Position numbers and translations under genes: made by a program. From Escherichia coli (lineage in GTDB: Bacteria; Pseudomonadota; Gammaproteobacteria; Enterobacterales; Enterobacteriaceae): 10,032 nucleotides of DNA. Positions 313 to 6,188 of the stretch are shown here, piece by piece; position 1 is the first letter of the stretch; every line of letters starts with the position of its first letter. The DNA lies in the NCBI RefSeq assembly GCF_036507355.1, contig NZ_AP027880.1; one strand, given 5' to 3'. The notes beneath the pieces are model-generated. The model saw only the letters and a program-made list of their open reading frames with translations, ran no database searches and had not been told where the DNA came from.

Positions 313-1245
313 GTCCTCAAGTCGTTTCCTAAGTTGGCCGCCGACAAAGAGTTGGCTGCTGCGCAGCAGCAGCTAGGTATGCAGCGCTTGTTGACTTCGC
401 AATGTTCAGCAGGGCAAGCGGAGCAAAGCTGCTTGGTGGTCTCTGGCTCGTTGGATACGGCAGGCTCTGACGGCCCAATTGGTCGCCGTCAGCAAACAGC
501 GGGGACTGTCACACTAGGGCGAGGTCTTGATGAGCGCTGGACGGTGGGGGCAAGCTTGTCGCTGGCGCACTCGAGCTTGCACCACAACGCAGTAAATCCT
601 AAGAATGCTTATGGCGTAAGTGGCTGGGTGAACTACAGCGAGCATGGCTTGTCCGGTCTTGGCTGGCAGATGGATGCAGCCATTGGTTATGCGAAGAACA
701 AGAGCACCATCACCCGTGGTCAGGGCCTTGAGCATGTTCACCTGGTGCAGGGCACAAGCAATTTAGACACAGTGGCAGCTCGTATTGCCTTGGGGTTTGG
801 CATCCAGCAGCGTCATGGATGGACTTTGACGCCAGCAGTGTCTGTGACACAGCAAAACAGCAAGTTTGCAGCTTACAGTGAGTCGCCTTCAGCCTTTACT
901 GCGTCGTACGATAAATCGGAGCTTAAAACGACTGTGTTGGGAGTGGATCTGAGTGCCAAGAAGTCTTTGAGCGACAAGTCGCAGCTGCGTTTAGCGGTAG
1001 GCGTTGAGCAAGACCTTAAAACGGATCGTATGAAGCTGGCTGGCGTCTCTGATGTTCCAGGAGCGCAGCGATTTAACTTAGAGAGTGCTTTAGAGCGCAA
1101 GAAACTGCGTCCTTATGCCTCTGTGGGATACCGCTATCAAGTCAGTGCACAGGGGGCTGTGTTTGTGAACACAGGCGTGATGCGGGATATGTTCTCGAAC
1201 AAACCCAACGTGGGTGTGCAGGTCGGTTATAGCGCACGGTTTTAA
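1..1245 (+). CDS. HAF-repeat autotransporter, C-terminal part: last HAF repeats, linker and autotransporter beta-barrel translocator domain. The 5' end runs off the window start and is probably continuous with 9010..10032 on a circular molecule.
   Basis: Frame 1 is open from base 1 (track ORF 31..1245 is only the first in-frame GTG). The N-terminal part is the same 52-aa repeat seen at 9097..10032 (…GTGRHAFRWTSAGGMQDLGD…). The C-terminal ~280 aa has the alternating-hydrophobic pattern of an autotransporter beta domain and ends …VGVQVGYSARF-stop, the typical terminal aromatic signature. A terminator follows. Confidence 0.85.
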   Translation, partial: DQQGYSSATAVSADGSTVVGGADYDLTAGGTGRHAFRWTSAGGMQDLGDFTSDQQGSSSATAVSADGSVVAGIASNDAGEMRAFIYKAPQSPTDPNLPIQDYENVLKSFPKLAADKELAAAQQQLGMQRLLTSQCSAGQAEQSCLVVSGSLDTAGSDGPIGRRQQTAGTVTLGRGLDERWTVGASLSLAHSSLHHNAVNPKNAYGVSGWVNYSEHGLSGLGWQMDAAIGYAKNKSTITRGQGLEHVHLVQGTSNLDTVAARIALGFGIQQRHGWTLTPAVSVTQQNSKFAAYSESPSAFTASYDKSELKTTVLGVDLSAKKSLSDKSQLRLAVGVEQDLKTDRMKLAGVSDVPGAQRFNLESALERKKLRPYASVGYRYQVSAQGAVFVNTGVMRDMFSNKPNVGVQVGYSARF

Positions 1246-1306
1246 CGCGACATAGCGTTCAAACATTTCCTCAGCTCACGGTAAATCCTGCTTATCGATG
1301 GCAACA

Positions 1307-1332
1307 AAAAAGGCGCTCAAAGCGCCTTTTTT
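1307..1332. terminator. Rho-independent terminator, potentially bidirectional, downstream of the autotransporter gene
   Basis: A-run (1307..1312), GC stem ggcgc/gcgcc with 4-nt loop (1313..1326), then T6 (1327..1332). Confidence 0.7.
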
Positions 1333-1383
1333 GCGTCTGGTGCTACCATGCGAGCTACATGTATCTCAAAAGGAGTTGATGCC

Positions 1384-1527
1384 ATGTCTGTATCTCTTCG
1401 CCTACCCCCAGAACTGAACCAGCGTCTGAGCAACTTGGCCGAGCGTGAGCTGGAAGCGGTGCGTGCCGGTAAATCCAAGGCCGTGCCTTTGGAAGACGTT
1501 ATGAAGCAGTATGGCTTGGCAGATTGA
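1384..1527 (+). CDS. Ribbon-helix-helix type II antitoxin (RelB/ParD-like), 47 aa
   Basis: ATG at 1384 with AAGGAG about 9 nt upstream. N-terminus MSVSLRLPPELNQRLSNLAE is a classic RHH beta-strand plus helix. The stop overlaps the start of the downstream toxin ORF (ATGGCTTGGCAGATTGA), typical TA coupling. Confidence 0.7.
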   Translation: MSVSLRLPPELNQRLSNLAERELEAVRAGKSKAVPLEDVMKQYGLAD

Positions 1528-1711
1528 ACTGTCCGAAGGTGCTGTCAAAAACCTCAAGCAGCTCGACCACCAACACGCCCGACGCATCCTGAGCTTTTTG
1601 CACGGTCGCGTGGCGCAACTTGATGACCCGCGCAGCATTGGCGAGGCACTCAAAGGCTCCAAGCTGGGGGAGCTTTGGAAGTACTGCGTGGGGGACTACC
1701 GAATCATATGA
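1511..1711 (+). CDS. RelE/ParE-family toxin, apparently C-terminally truncated (66 aa; ends …WKYCVGDYRII-stop)
   Basis: MAWQIELSEGAVKNLKQLD…RRILSFL…DPRSIGEALKGSKLGELWKYCVGDYRII matches the N-terminal two-thirds of RelE/ParE toxins. The usual C-terminal strand with catalytic Arg/Tyr (…V.V.RVGHR…Y) is missing. The stop overlaps the ATG of the next ORF (cATATGAc). Confidence 0.6.
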   Translation: MAWQIELSEGAVKNLKQLDHQHARRILSFLHGRVAQLDDPRSIGEALKGSKLGELWKYCVGDYRII

Positions 1712-1947
1712 CACAAGATAAGTGGCTGGCCGAACGGCTGGCATACCTGCGCGGCTTGAAGGCTCCCAGCGATCAACAGCGCCTGCTGCTGATGCTGGCC
1801 GACAAGCCCGACCGCACCGCCGACGCCGTCCGCATCATCAACGCCGAGAAGGCCGCCGAGAGGAAGGCCCGTCCGACGATCTGCCGACCCGCATCACCCT
1901 GCCCAAGTAAGGCCGTAGCCGCTTCGCGGTGCCTTCGGCAGCCTTGA
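1708..1947 (+). CDS. Small hypothetical protein (MTQDKWLAERLAYLRGLKAPSDQQRLLLMLADKPDRTADAVRIINAEKAAERKA…); C-terminal extent uncertain (possible frameshift, alternative stop at 1910)
   Basis: ATG at 1708 overlaps the relE-like stop. A diverged paralogous start (MTQNKWLNERLAYIRGLKAPNDH…) occurs at 8792, with mostly synonymous third-position differences over the first ~28 codons. The track ORF 1675..1947 is over-extended upstream. Confidence 0.45.
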   Translation: MTQDKWLAERLAYLRGLKAPSDQQRLLLMLADKPDRTADAVRIINAEKAAERKARPTICRPASPCPSKAVAASRCLRQP

Positions 1948-2023
1948 CCCTTCCCCTACGCTCAAAACGCGCTGTAGGCCCTTCTACGGGCCTTGGCGAC
2001 CCCTTCCCTTCCTGATTGCCGAA

Positions 2024-2078
2024 GCCGGAGGGGGAGCCGCCGCCGCAGGCGGTGGGGGAACCCCGCAGGGGTGCCCCA
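2024..2078. repeat. 55-bp GC-rich direct repeat, copy 1 (identical to 6089..6143); short hairpin-forming subunits
   Basis: gccggagggggagccgccgccgcaggcggtgggggaaccccgcaggggtgcccca is identical at both loci. Homology extends about 5-10 bp upstream (gatt…) with a 5-bp indel. Confidence 0.9.
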
Positions 2079-2098
2079 TGTCCTTGTCGCAGCAGCGT

Positions 2099-2170
2099 TT
2101 TCCACAGGTTGTGGCGGCCAATTACAGGTTTAGATTTATAGGATTCTTTTTTTAAAGGCTTAACCTATCG
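2099..2170. promoter_or_regulatory. oriV AT-rich region with a DnaA-box-like sequence
   Basis: TTTTCCACA at 2099..2107 (8/9 match to TTATCCACA), followed by an AT-rich stretch (ttacaggtttagatttataggattctttttttaaagg) immediately before the iterons. Confidence 0.55.
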
Positions 2171-2175
2171 GTTTA

Positions 2176-2284
2176 GGGGGGGTCCGATTTAACGGGAAAA
2201 AGGGGGTCCGATTTAACGTGGATAAGTACCCTTGGGGGGGTCCGATTTATCGAGGTGGGGGGGTCCGATTTAACGTGGATAAGT
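2176..2284. repeat. oriV iterons: four direct repeats of GGGGG(GG)TCCGATTTAACG, two extended by CGTGGATAA (DnaA-box-like); a fifth degenerate copy at 2397..2414
   Basis: TCCGATTTAACG/TCCGATTTATCG cores start at 2183, 2207, 2241 and 2264 (spacing 24/34/23 bp). cgtggataa at 2217..2225 and 2274..2282. Located directly downstream of the initiator gene, as in pVS1-type replicons. Confidence 0.85.
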
Positions 2285-2446
2285 GGCGCTATCGACAGGG
2301 TTGTGCACCGTTTTGGTCCCGCTGGGGTTTTCGGACACTTCCAGAGACATAAAACCCCGGAGATTCAATGCGTTGCACACGAATCGCCGGGGTCTAGGGG
2401 GGGCCGATCTAACGACACGTTTGTCGGACACTTCAAGGGGTTAGCG

Positions 2447-3442
2447 TTACTCGGTCGGACCGCCCTTGTAAGAGATCGGCGGCGGGGAACCGAGCAGCAG
2501 GACGCCGCCCGTGACCGGCTTCACCTTGGCCTGCGGATAGACGGCCAGAACCTTCTTGAGGGCCGGCACAAACTTCTTCTTGAAGTCCTTGTCAGCATCC
2601 TTGCCGGTGTACTCCTGCGCGAACTGCTCGCGCAGAGACTTCCAGTGCAAAGTGACGCCGCGTCCCTCGATGCGATGCAGCCGGTGGGCCAGCCAAGCGT
2701 AGACATCGAGCGCCAGCGCCGAACCTTTCAGGGCCATCAGGGCGCGGTTGTCGAGCGGTACGGCGCTTTGCATCAGTGACGTGAAATAGCCCTCGGACAA
2801 CACCATCGTGCCCGGCCATAGCGCCCGCTGCTTGGTGTCGCGGTTCGCCATCCATGCGTCGAACTGCTCGACCGGCTGTCCATTGAAGGTGCGGCCCTTG
2901 AAGCCAAGTTGCAGACGGCAGGCGGCCAGCGCGTGCATCTGCTTGCGCAGGGTCGCATAGCGCGCCCCTTGGTCGTCCAAGCCCATCAGGCTAAGGAACT
3001 CGGCCGCGCTATCACCGATCTTGATTTCGCGCTCCTTGTTGCGCACGGCAAAGGTGGACACCCACGCCAGCGCCAGCCGGGGCATGACGCCATAGGGGAT
3101 CGGTTGCAGCACCGGCCCGTTGCCTTCGTCCAGATAACCGGCCTGCACGTTCACCCACGCGGCCCCGGACTGGCGCATGAACTCGCGCCCCTCGACCTTG
3201 GCGCGGGGCAAGCCGACCTGACAAAGCACGGCGTGAGTAAACGCCATGTCCTCGCCGCTCGGCGGGTTCGTGGCGATTTCGGCGGCCGCGTCGATCAGGT
3301 TTATCTTTTGGCGACTGATGAATGACAGGCTCTTATTGCTCTGCCCTTTAGATGCCGTAGCGTCGGCCGCCCGCTTAACCTCGCGCGGCACAATGTTGCC
3401 AAGCAGCGAACCGATGGGCTGGGGGCCGTTAGATTTGCTCAT
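2447..3442 (-). CDS. repA: Plasmid replication initiator protein (iteron-binding RepA; TrfA/pVS1-RepA-like family assignment tentative)
   Basis: 331-aa ORF ending 30 bp from the iteron cluster, co-directional with and immediately downstream of the parA-parG operon. GGAGAT RBS about 9 nt upstream of the ATG at 3442. Family call is from synteny and recalled motifs (…SALALDVYAWLAHRL…), not a search. Confidence 0.7.
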   Translation of the reverse strand: MSKSNGPQPIGSLLGNIVPREVKRAADATASKGQSNKSLSFISRQKINLIDAAAEIATNPPSGEDMAFTHAVLCQVGLPRAKVEGREFMRQSGAAWVNVQAGYLDEGNGPVLQPIPYGVMPRLALAWVSTFAVRNKEREIKIGDSAAEFLSLMGLDDQGARYATLRKQMHALAACRLQLGFKGRTFNGQPVEQFDAWMANRDTKQRALWPGTMVLSEGYFTSLMQSAVPLDNRALMALKGSALALDVYAWLAHRLHRIEGRGVTLHWKSLREQFAQEYTGKDADKDFKKKFVPALKKVLAVYPQAKVKPVTGGVLLLGSPPPISYKGGPTE

Positions 3443-3469
3443 AAGGCGATCTCCACCGGCATGGCCGGG

Positions 3470-3727
3470 CTAGTTATTGTGGCGCTGCTCGTATTCATCG
3501 AAGGCCAGCCGCAACAGCTCGTTTAGCTTGAGGTCGTGGGCCGCTGCGAACATGCGGAAACGTCGACGCAGCTCGGCCGACACGCGGAAATTGAGCGGCA
3601 CATTGTTCGCCGAGGCCTCGGCCTCGGCCTTCACCTTGGGGGTGCAGGTCGGCATGTCGGCAACCGGCGCGGCGCTGCCCTTCGTGGCAACAAGGCCGGT
3701 CAAATCAGCGGGCTTCTTGGTAGCCAT
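3470..3727 (-). CDS. parG: ParG-like ribbon-helix-helix partition protein (centromere-binding partner of ParA)
   Basis: 85 aa with a C-terminal RHH fold signature (LNFRVSAELRRRFRMFAAAHDLKLNELLRLAFDEY) and a flexible Ala/Lys-rich N-terminus. Its ATG (3725..3727) lies 1 nt from the parA stop. Confidence 0.75.
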   Translation of the reverse strand: MATKKPADLTGLVATKGSAAPVADMPTCTPKVKAEAEASANNVPLNFRVSAELRRRFRMFAAAHDLKLNELLRLAFDEYEQRHNN

Positions 3728-3728
3728 A

Positions 3729-4379
3729 TTAAACGGTTTCCTTCTTTTTGGTTATCTTCTTAGCGTTCATGCGTTCTTGCACGAAAGCTAAAAGCTGGGA
3801 GATTTCCTCGGCGCTGCGGCTCTTGGGGTCGCTCTCGCCTACGGTGCGGCCGTCCACCATCGAGGCGGCATAGTCCACGCGGTCATGCACGATGGCTGGG
3901 GCTACAGCCCCATGCGCGGACAAGGCGGCCACGGCCTGAACGGTAAGCCGCGCGGTCGGCTTGGCCTGCGTCACGGCGAAGGCGAAAGGCCGGCCGGTTT
4001 CCTGCGCAATGTCCACGGTGCTGCCTACGGCCCGCAGGTCGTGCGGGCTGGGCCGGGTCGGGATCAACACAAGGTCGGCCAGCTTCACCACGTCGCGGAT
4101 AGCCTCGGTGATGGCCGGCGGGGTGTCGATCACGGCCAGCTTGAAACCAGCCTCGGCCAGCGCCCGCAGCTTGGCGGGCAGCTCGGCCAGCGAGGCGGCG
4201 GCCAGTGCCGGGGTGTCGTCCTCGCGGGAGTTCCACCACGCCGAAAGTGACCCTTGCGGGTCAGTGTCGAGCAGGACCGCCGGGCCGGCTCCTGCCTGTT
4301 CGGCGGCAACCGCAAGGTGCGCCGCTAGGGTGGTTTTCCCGGCTCCCCCCTTCTGGCTTGCTAGAACAAGGATTTTCAC
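3729..4379 (-). CDS. parA: ParA-family partition ATPase (small type Ib Walker-type, 216 aa)
   Basis: Deviant Walker A MKILVLASQKGGAGKTT at the N-terminus. GTG start at 4379 with AGAGGG RBS 5 nt upstream. Followed by the RHH partner gene. Confidence 0.9.
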   Translation of the reverse strand: MKILVLASQKGGAGKTTLAAHLAVAAEQAGAGPAVLLDTDPQGSLSAWWNSREDDTPALAAASLAELPAKLRALAEAGFKLAVIDTPPAITEAIRDVVKLADLVLIPTRPSPHDLRAVGSTVDIAQETGRPFAFAVTQAKPTARLTVQAVAALSAHGAVAPAIVHDRVDYAASMVDGRTVGESDPKSRSAEEISQLLAFVQERMNAKKITKKKETV

Positions 4380-4454: not shown

Positions 4455-4474
4455 AAAGCACGCTTGCGTGCTTT
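4455..4474. promoter_or_regulatory. 20-bp palindrome aaagcacgc-tt-gcgtgcttt upstream of parA, with an extra half-site at 4424..4432; candidate par operator or centromere-like site
   Basis: Perfect 9-bp arms; the half-site aaagcacgc is repeated 31 bp away. Lies in the parA leader/promoter region. Confidence 0.45.
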
Positions 4475-4475
4475 C

Positions 4476-4526
4476 TGGATTGTGCAATCCAAAAGCCGGG
4501 GCGGCCGGCGCGTGTAATCGCAAACG
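4476..4526. repeat. Inverted repeat A (51 bp), perfect inverted copy of 5576..5626; contains palindromic core ggattgTGcaatcc and motif CGTGTAATCG
   Basis: The reverse complement of 5576..5626 is identical to 4476..4526 (checked base by base). Confidence 0.9.
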
Positions 4527-5575: not shown

Positions 5576-5626
5576 CGTTTGCGATTACACGCGCCGGCCG
5601 CCCCGGCTTTTGGATTGCACAATCCA
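5576..5626. repeat. Inverted repeat B (51 bp); here the core sits in a full 30-bp palindrome cggcttttGGATTGcaCAATCCaaaagccg (5603..5632), a candidate serine-recombinase crossover site
   Basis: Perfect inverted identity with 4476..4526. Two 14-bp arms around a central CA dinucleotide (TG in copy A), the geometry of resolvase/invertase site I. Confidence 0.6.
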
Positions 5627-5634
5627 AAAGCCGT

Positions 5635-5734: not shown

Positions 5735-6088
5735 CATGGAATCGGATCCCGGTCGCCGGCCGGGGATTCCTTCAACGTGTAATCGGTCACGCTAGAAAGC
5801 CATAGGACGCGCTAGGAGCGCCGCACCGGCCGGGCCGCTACCTTCCCCCTCCCCTGCCCTAAAGAACGCCGCCACGGGCTGCCAGCGCAGCCGTAGGCGT
5901 ATCAGATTACACGTGCCCCCCGGCCTCTTTTGGTGCTTTCCACCTATCAGCCCGCAACCAGGTCAAAGGAGATCCACGACACTGGCCGCCAGCTCTCTTC
6001 CCTGCCGAGCCTGCCGGCCGGTAGGCCGGCCCATCGCCGGCGCAGCCGGCGCTACAAAACGCTTCGGCCGCTTGCGGCCGTCCGATTA

Positions 6089-6143
6089 GCCGGAGGGGGA
6101 GCCGCCGCCGCAGGCGGTGGGGGAACCCCGCAGGGGTGCCCCA
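6089..6143. repeat. 55-bp GC-rich direct repeat, copy 2 (identical to 2024..2078), immediately upstream of the Rep_3 initiator RBS
   Basis: Exact 55/55 identity with copy 1. Confidence 0.9.
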
Positions 6144-6188
6144 AGGGGGGCGACGTCGCGGAGGGCCGCAGGCCCGGAGGTTGTCAGG

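Follow-up and report, generated by a model that had tools for sequence, protein, structure and literature searches.

The locus at positions 1384-1947 of the window, the whole stretch of 10,032 nucleotides of DNA that was analysed, is very probably a vestigial type II toxin-antitoxin (TA) cassette of the RelB/RelE type, located where segments of a mosaic plasmid meet and in a state of ordinary decay. Three open reading frames (ORFs) follow one another there on the plus strand, namely an antitoxin remnant of 47 aa (1384-1527), a toxin stub of 66 aa (1511-1711) and a remnant of traD of 79 aa (1708-1947), and none of them is expected to keep its original function. The truncated toxin was already known, being listed as a pseudogene in RefSeq, and in this respect the finding is real but ordinary and does not represent a new system. 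What is new is that the antitoxin is also broken, that the neighbouring ORFs are remnants of antitoxin and traD genes, and that donors can be named for both sides of the junction at which the toxin ends.

Nearly all of plasmid p2017.17.01CC_2 from Escherichia coli of human faeces (NZ_AP027824.1; circular, 10,103 bp) corresponds to the window, with 99.9% identity over positions 1250-2450. Besides the locus at 1384-1947, this plasmid carries an autotransporter gene whose passenger part is tandemly repeated, a RepA_C-type replicon with iterons, a ribbon-helix-helix (RHH) protein, ParA, a resolvase, a second replication gene of the Rep3 type and a MobA/MobL relaxase; its maintenance is provided by two replicons together with ParA and the resolvase. 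A further record, AP027811.1, is 97% identical and its ORFs are broken up over the whole sequence; it was regarded as the same type of plasmid in an error-rich version.

Two parts of the plasmid resemble plasmid III (pIII) of Paracoccus aminovorans. One of them, at window 6083-8851, is collinear with positions 499-3516 of plasmid III, including the origin region, Rep3, mobA, oriT and the 5' end of traD, with an identity of 94% over rep and 86% over the mobA-oriT region (window 7808-8851, mobA-oriT-traD 5'). The other, at window 1708-2107, is collinear with the stretch of plasmid III that runs from 3458 through the record origin to 592, and here the traD pieces are 95-98% identical and positions 2024-2107 are 80% identical. 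Together, the two parts correspond to one pIII-like plasmid, but they overlap at both ends and differ in their identity to plasmid III; they probably derive from two related plasmids. The segment that begins at 1708 has its right-hand end in a 56-bp element (2023-2078, plus strand), which corresponds to pIII 505-592 and has an exact second copy at 6088-6143 (100% in a self-blast).

The TA block itself, covering 1268-1707 on the plus strand, is a separate piece of this mosaic, 440 bp long, and both its ends are recombination joints. As seen by blastn, it is homologous to the RelB/RelE-type cassettes of Comamonas plasmids (NZ_CP101748.1, WP_182312697.1/WP_256497111.1; NZ_CP104281.1), which are 92-97% identical to the window in DNA over 1268-1707. 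In the case of NZ_CP101748.1, the identity is 91.6% over window 1268-1444 and 96.7% over 1435-1707, with similar values for NZ_CP104281.1 over the block. The Comamonas cassettes and the window have in common the upstream hairpin, the Shine-Dalgarno sequence and an antitoxin/toxin overlap of 17 nt; the window differs in lacking 28 residues of the antitoxin and the last 24 residues of the toxin, in the substitution R59C, and in its downstream context, with traD in the place of the hyp-parA-rep order of Comamonas. To the left of 1268, the similarity to the Comamonas cassette plasmids stops. An autotransporter context common to the window and Comamonas sp. C11, which has an autotransporter fragment before its TA genes, was considered and rejected, as the two proteins are unrelated; therefore, the shared block begins only at about 1268.

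Upstream of the cassette, at 1305-1333, there is a hairpin with a perfect 13-bp stem (inverted repeat I4, 100% complementary, loop of 3 nt) flanked by an A-run and a T-run, in the manner of a bidirectional terminator, and it is conserved in the Comamonas plasmids. This hairpin is visible solely through the repeat finder and not through the terminator scan. The scan of 1200-2500 for promoters and terminators gave nothing above thresholds, with no sigma-70-like promoter by consensus, and the Rfam scan of the whole window gave no matches.

Regarding the right-hand joint, a megablast of 1250-2450 against 72,556 plasmids split cleanly between 1707 and 1708 (plus strand), at a blunt recombination joint where the toxin gene meets the traD start codon and the homology switches on both sides. 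The matches up to 1707 are the TA cassettes of Comamonas plasmids, annotated as 'TraY domain-containing protein' and 'RelE/ParE family toxin', and those from 1708 onwards are MOBQ plasmids, annotated as 'conjugal transfer protein TraD'. The Comamonas homology stops with CGAATCAT and the traD homology opens with ATGACACAAG. As seen by three-way alignment and direct reading, the window runs across the seam as GACTACCGAATCAT followed at once by ATGACACAAG, Comamonas continues past it as ATCATTGCCGAC, and Paracoccus plasmid III has GCACCC ahead of ATGACGCAAG. The seam possesses neither microhomology nor filler and lies exactly on the traD start codon, so that the ATG (1708-1710) is overlapped by the toxin stop codon TGA (1709-1711) in cATATGAc, this stop codon being a product of the junction. 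The exact junction, GACTACCGNATCATATGACNCAAGA, was sought in JGI metagenome contigs as a way to an intermediate with a full-length antitoxin, with 0 matches, and in the E. coli complete genomes the source plasmid was the sole match to the junction (1/5426), yielding no informative variants.

The toxin ORF (1511-1711) overlaps that of the antitoxin (1384-1527) by 17 nt and encodes the first 66 residues of a RelE-type toxin of 90 aa, with R59C. Its product belongs to the RelE/ParE superfamily through the Pfam family ParE_toxin (PF05016), matching only profile positions 1-68 of 89 (E 4.8e-7; 30.7 bits, cut-off 23), compared to positions 1-89 in the 90-aa homologue of Comamonas sp. C11; the complete domain of about 89 positions, with the last two β-strands, is not present. 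Against TIGR02385 (RelE_StbE), the 66-aa product scores 13 bits only, for a cut-off of 27.9. When the homologue was compared by tblastn with the six frames of the window, the stub was 98.5% identical to residues 1-66 of the Comamonas toxin, and the toxin C-terminus was absent from all six frames, the best match beyond the stub having an E value of 0.35. The RefSeq/PGAP annotation of 1511-1708 agrees with this, as it gives a pseudogene, 'type II toxin-antitoxin system RelE family toxin; incomplete; missing C-terminus'. Thus, a preliminary description of this DNA is borne out in the overlapping antitoxin and toxin genes, in the missing toxin C-terminus and its absence downstream in any frame, in the stop codon overlapping the next ATG, and in the proposal that a recombination junction at about 1708 had cut the toxin. 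Full-length toxins of Comamonas include WP_197577754.1 and WP_256497111.1.

The same description had also considered a natural three-gene arrangement with a short toxin, and the lengths of the homologues speak against it. Among the 120 best toxin homologues listed, 116 have 84-99 aa, and the four short ones are a 65-aa protein of the sister plasmid AP027811.1, two frameshifted proteins of 72 aa and one of 56 aa on a 743-bp contig; short toxins are therefore not a natural class, and no functional toxin of the same short length was found in this set. One JGI contig with a frameshifted 72-aa toxin next to an intact 75-aa antitoxin (L017) was considered as an independent case of decay and left unused, since its parA and rep are also split and sequencing error is as likely as decay.

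The nearest solved relative of the full-length homologue is 2KHE (a 'toxin-like protein' of 89 aa), which it matches end to end with an E value of 1.3e-27, and it also matches the RelE entries 9G12, 1WMI (aRelE of P. horikoshii) and 3G5O, indicating that it is a RelE-type member of the superfamily. Alignment A2 sets the retained motif WKYRVGDYR, by its part KYRVGDYR, against K54, R56 and R61 of E. coli RelE, and the window protein ends before the segment aligned with RelE 64-95, which holds R81 and Y87 (PMC4652777). These two residues, proposed as an acid-base pair with kinetic support for R81 (PMC4652777), correspond to R84 and Y88 of the homologues, both past residue 66; the stub has neither the C-terminal arginine nor the tyrosine, and such a peptide is encoded nowhere else in the window. 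An AlphaFold model of the full-length homologue (mean pLDDT 71, only moderate confidence) has three strands in this region, at 55-60, 63-70 and 73-80, with a short helix following at 84-87. Truncation behind residue 66 would therefore split one strand and remove the last strand and the helix. In addition, position 59 of the stub is a cysteine, where arginine is invariant in all 29 of the 29 full-length homologues of alignment A4. The toxicity of the stub would thereby have been lost.

The antitoxin had been described as intact, but it has 47 aa in the window and 75 aa in Comamonas, owing to a single in-frame deletion of 84 nt that removed 28 residues. In Comamonas, the 10-nt direct repeats TTGGCCGAGC and TTGGCAGAGC are 84 nt apart, and the window possesses a single copy, TTGGCCGAGC, which marks the scar at 1435-1444 (plus strand). 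The missing residues 20-47 take in the last part of helix 1, the turn and the whole helix 2 of the ribbon-helix-helix region, and the remnant retains the N-terminal β-strand, the start of helix 1 and the C-terminal 28-30 residues. The RHH region of the homologue (residues 3-46) aligns to CopG-family and TraY structures; in the 47-aa product, this DNA-binding and dimerisation domain of strand, helix 1 and helix 2 is no longer complete. The profiles agree with the alignment to the 75-aa homologue. With the RelB-like model NF048017 of NCBIfam, the remnant reaches 43.8 bits in two stretches, below the cut-off of 50, compared to 119 bits over profile positions 1-70 for the homologue, and with Pfam TraY the E values are 0.13 (residues 3-21 only) and 4.8e-10 (residues 3-49), respectively. 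The C-terminal segment is preserved, as residues 18-47 of the remnant match positions 41-70 of the 70 in NF048017. The antitoxin ATG has a Shine-Dalgarno sequence, AAGGAG, ahead of it, and the reading frame is intact. In antitoxins of the RelB type, the C-terminal segment binds the toxin and the RHH region is the DNA-binding dimerisation part. The remnant has presumably lost operator binding, and toxin binding may possibly be left, to judge from the residues retained.

Likewise, the ORF behind the toxin, first taken for an unrelated and new gene, is the 5' part of traD, twice deleted and without the TraD domain. Over window 1708-1834 and 1818-1871, the identity to the beginning of traD from MOBQ plasmids (P. 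aminovorans plasmid III, pMNBL076-1 and relatives) is 95-98%, and this nucleotide homology from the start codon onwards establishes the descent of the ORF at 1708 from traD. Its product of 79 aa consists of 55 TraD-derived residues, with an internal deletion of 24 aa, followed by an unrelated out-of-frame tail of 24 aa. The TraD domain PF06412 is found at residues 74-138 of the pIII TraD (144 aa; E 1.1e-10), in its C-terminal half, and neither the 79-aa ORF nor the 36-aa ORF described below has a Pfam match. Two scars could be located on the plus strand: a 72-nt in-frame deletion inside traD with the direct repeat CGCCGACG at 1818-1825, as seen by comparison with pIII-type traD, and a 288-nt deletion with the direct repeat GAAGGCCCG at 1863-1871, as seen by comparison with metagenome contig L013. 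The latter eliminated the TraD domain together with the greater part of the following ORF, a small one that comes after traD in pIII-type plasmids and whose 3' end is left at 1860-1908 (plus strand; 98% identical to pIII 4105-4153), its counterpart in plasmid III lying 412 nt further on. All three deletions of the locus (84, 72 and 288 nt) are bounded by direct repeats of 8-10 nt, and both of those within reading frames (84 and 72 nt) are in frame.

A second traD stub, 36 aa long and TraD-like in its first 22 residues, is located at 8793-8903 (plus strand) in the native position beside mobA and oriT, which confirms the paralogous small ORF reported there earlier. It starts with the same N-terminus as the ORF at 1708, MTQNKWLNERLAYIRGLKAPND, and is divergent from mobA, as is usual for MOBQ traD, but it is destroyed after codon 22, so that both copies in the window are stubs without PF06412. 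The DNA of the two copies is only about 70% identical; hence, they are not recent duplicates.

As for the distribution of the locus, the exact proteins are encoded on contigs of both E. coli isolates and gut metagenomes: that of 47 aa on 72 contigs, that of 66 aa on 51 and that of 79 aa on 23. To the last can be added 33 contigs for a protein of 90 aa which falls into the same cluster at 90% identity and is probably the same ORF called from the TTG at 1675. The eight contexts that were read all belong to the same plasmid type, with 99.8-100% identity over 1250-2450 where the contigs align, and this uniformity is read as recent clonal spread rather than conservation. The form seen in L013 is rare, occurring on 2 contigs only. 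L013 is 100% identical to the window over 1250-1871, then has 288 extra nt before the match resumes at window 1860; with the same junction, it thus carries directly behind the toxin stub a near-complete TraD of 120 aa with the Pfam domain and the native C-terminus. Since these 288 nt are kept there, the 288-nt deletion came after the junction, after the deletion in the antitoxin and after the 72-nt one in traD, and for the junction this order is shown by the contig. The truncation of the toxin probably preceded the antitoxin deletion, because the loss of an antitoxin beside a live toxin should be lethal.

The following course of events is proposed. An illegitimate, blunt recombination would have joined a TA cassette of the Comamonas-plasmid type, within toxin codon 67, to the start codon of traD from a MOBQ/Rep3 plasmid similar to Paracoccus pIII. 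The last 24 toxin residues would have been lost in this way, and with them half a β-strand, the last strand and the equivalents of RelE R81 and Y87, leaving the toxin inactive. With no toxin to neutralise, selection on the antitoxin would have been relaxed, and a slippage deletion of 84 nt between the 10-nt direct repeats could then have removed its DNA-binding and dimerisation core. Similar short-repeat deletions would have struck traD twice, of 72 nt and then of 288 nt. Degrading TA pairs are a frequent finding of population surveys, as are orphan antitoxins, and in one such survey of Klebsiella an antitoxin-like ORF beside a toxin that is no longer valid was read as a degrading TA pair (PMC7192599). 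The window antitoxin differs from the orphan antitoxins of that survey, for which 50-150 aa were required, as its 47 aa fall outside the definition and its DNA-binding core is also lost.

Some features can be set against decay. The stubs are identical on many contigs, which is readable as conservation, and the in-frame intragenic deletions together with the ATGA stop/start overlap resemble an expressed, translationally coupled operon. Moreover, the C-terminal segment of the antitoxin is whole (profile 41-70 of 70), and the differences from the Comamonas genes are mostly synonymous (in the toxin stub, 5 synonymous and 1 non-synonymous), so that decay since the truncation has been slight.

A rival view holds that the junction was selected, placing traD behind the TA promoter with ATGA coupling. 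As an account of the past, it supposes that in an ancestor, of which L013 is a survivor, the toxin-less cassette served as an expression module for the only usable traD, constitutive because the autorepressor of the cassette had lost its DNA-binding core, and that the window shows what became of such a 'TA promoter capture' after further decay; this history is unlikely. It is favoured by the position of the junction exactly at the traD ATG, which made the stop/start overlap, by the 120-aa TraD of L013 with its Pfam domain intact directly behind the toxin stub, by the destruction of the native traD at 8793 after codon 22, which leaves the 1708 copy as the sole usable one, and by the AAGGAG ahead of the antitoxin. 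As a current function, in which the loss of the antitoxin core de-represses the operon and the stubs act as a leader for the downstream gene, the same view is quite improbable, because the window traD has no domain after the 288-nt deletion and plasmids with this deletion prevail (23 contigs and another 33 for the cluster mate of 90 aa, compared to 2 with the L013 form), so that nothing functional is left to drive. The lack of a sigma-70-like promoter in the consensus scan also speaks against it.

Less probable still is an anti-addiction or decoy role, where the 47-aa stub would neutralise related RelE-type toxins of co-resident or incoming plasmids and allow escape from post-segregational killing, as had been suggested for the retained antitoxin. 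Its preserved toxin-binding end (residues 18-47), its intact reading frame and its Shine-Dalgarno sequence would suit such a role, which has been proposed for orphan antitoxins, themselves common (PMC7192599). However, the stub is without the RHH dimerisation core and would probably be unstable, the close full-length relatives of the toxin with a named source (P0004 and P0127) are from Comamonas and not from the E. coli hosts of the plasmid, and nothing apart from clonal identity points to selection. Neutralisation by the C-terminal 30 residues seems unlikely to matter. Finally, that the junction is an assembly chimera or a laboratory construct, with the NdeI site CATATG exactly at the traD ATG, is hardly credible and an engineered NdeI junction was rejected, given that the identical junction is found in independent isolate assemblies, in metagenome scaffolds of several studies and in two complete plasmid records, that is, in many independent natural samples, and that the rest of the plasmid has no vector parts.

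With decay of the cassette as the preferred explanation, the finding matters little for TA biology, where it opens no new question, and its use is as a correction of annotation: the 'hypothetical proteins' WP_257866074.1 and WP_257866072.1 are the antitoxin remnant and the traD remnant, respectively. In addition, the locus is a clean and well-dated example of TA decay after a toxin has been cut, affecting the toxin, then the core of the antitoxin and then the neighbouring gene, through deletions at repeats of 8-10 nt, and it illustrates how a small plasmid with two replicons, in circulation among gut E. coli, is assembled as a mosaic.

Altered copies of the toxin family are also found elsewhere: in the metagenome contig L017 (JGI 3300045669, 9.4 kb) and in the database homologues P0007, P0008 and P0002, frameshifts lead to 72-aa products or the sequence carries a 6-aa tandem duplication, the latter seen as ADIADIADI in a family member of 96 aa. 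On L017, the 75-aa antitoxin is intact and its partner toxin is frameshifted; as parA and rep are likewise split on this contig, sequencing error may lie behind the interrupted toxin.

Regarding traD, the copy at its native site (8793-8903), adjoining mobA and oriT, is broken off past codon 22, and its residues (NERLAYIRGLKAPND) are of the Comamonas type. The other of the two copies, joined to the truncated toxin (1708-1947), is likewise a stub, so that the plasmid lacks a complete traD. By PLSDB/MOB-suite typing, the plasmid is non-mobilizable, despite the presence of a gene for a MobA/MobL protein of 506 aa.

The autotransporter ORF is located at 31-1245, with the PF03797 beta-domain covering residues 147-372 of its product. 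A 156-bp unit, present in approximately eight tandem copies that are 89-94% identical, runs from 9087 to 10032 and on into 1-215, thus spanning the ends of the window and entering this ORF; the array is the repetitive passenger region of the autotransporter. On contigs of the same plasmid type, the protein has been called at 371-492 aa, a range indicating that the repeat copy number or the reading frame varies.

Two unrelated replication initiators are encoded on this single 10-kb plasmid, which is consistent with a cointegrate origin: repA, of the RepA_C type, on the minus strand (2447-3442), and a Rep3-type gene (about 6190-6980) that is 94% identical to the Rep3 of Paracoccus plasmid III. 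Upstream of repA, four direct repeats of GGGGGTCCGATTTAACG, spaced by 23-34 nt (2178-2284), are probably the iterons of the RepA_C-type origin.

A perfect direct repeat of 56 bp (2023-2078 and 6088-6143) brackets a 4-kb block comprising the RepA_C replicon, an RHH protein, ParA, a resolvase and an EexN-like lipoprotein gene. Within this block, the genes for the resolvase and the EexN-family lipoprotein are enclosed by 57-bp inverted repeats that are 98% identical (4470-4526 and 5576-5631), and the segment between them could be invertible or formerly mobile. The metagenome contig L008 represents a form without the 4-kb block, since its traD stub is followed by a single copy of the 56-bp repeat that leads directly into the Rep3 gene. 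About 55 bp of this element are found close to replication genes in plasmids of Agrobacterium, Xanthomonas, Burkholderia and Nitrotoga, and the element may be a recombination hot spot for the fusion and resolution of replicons.
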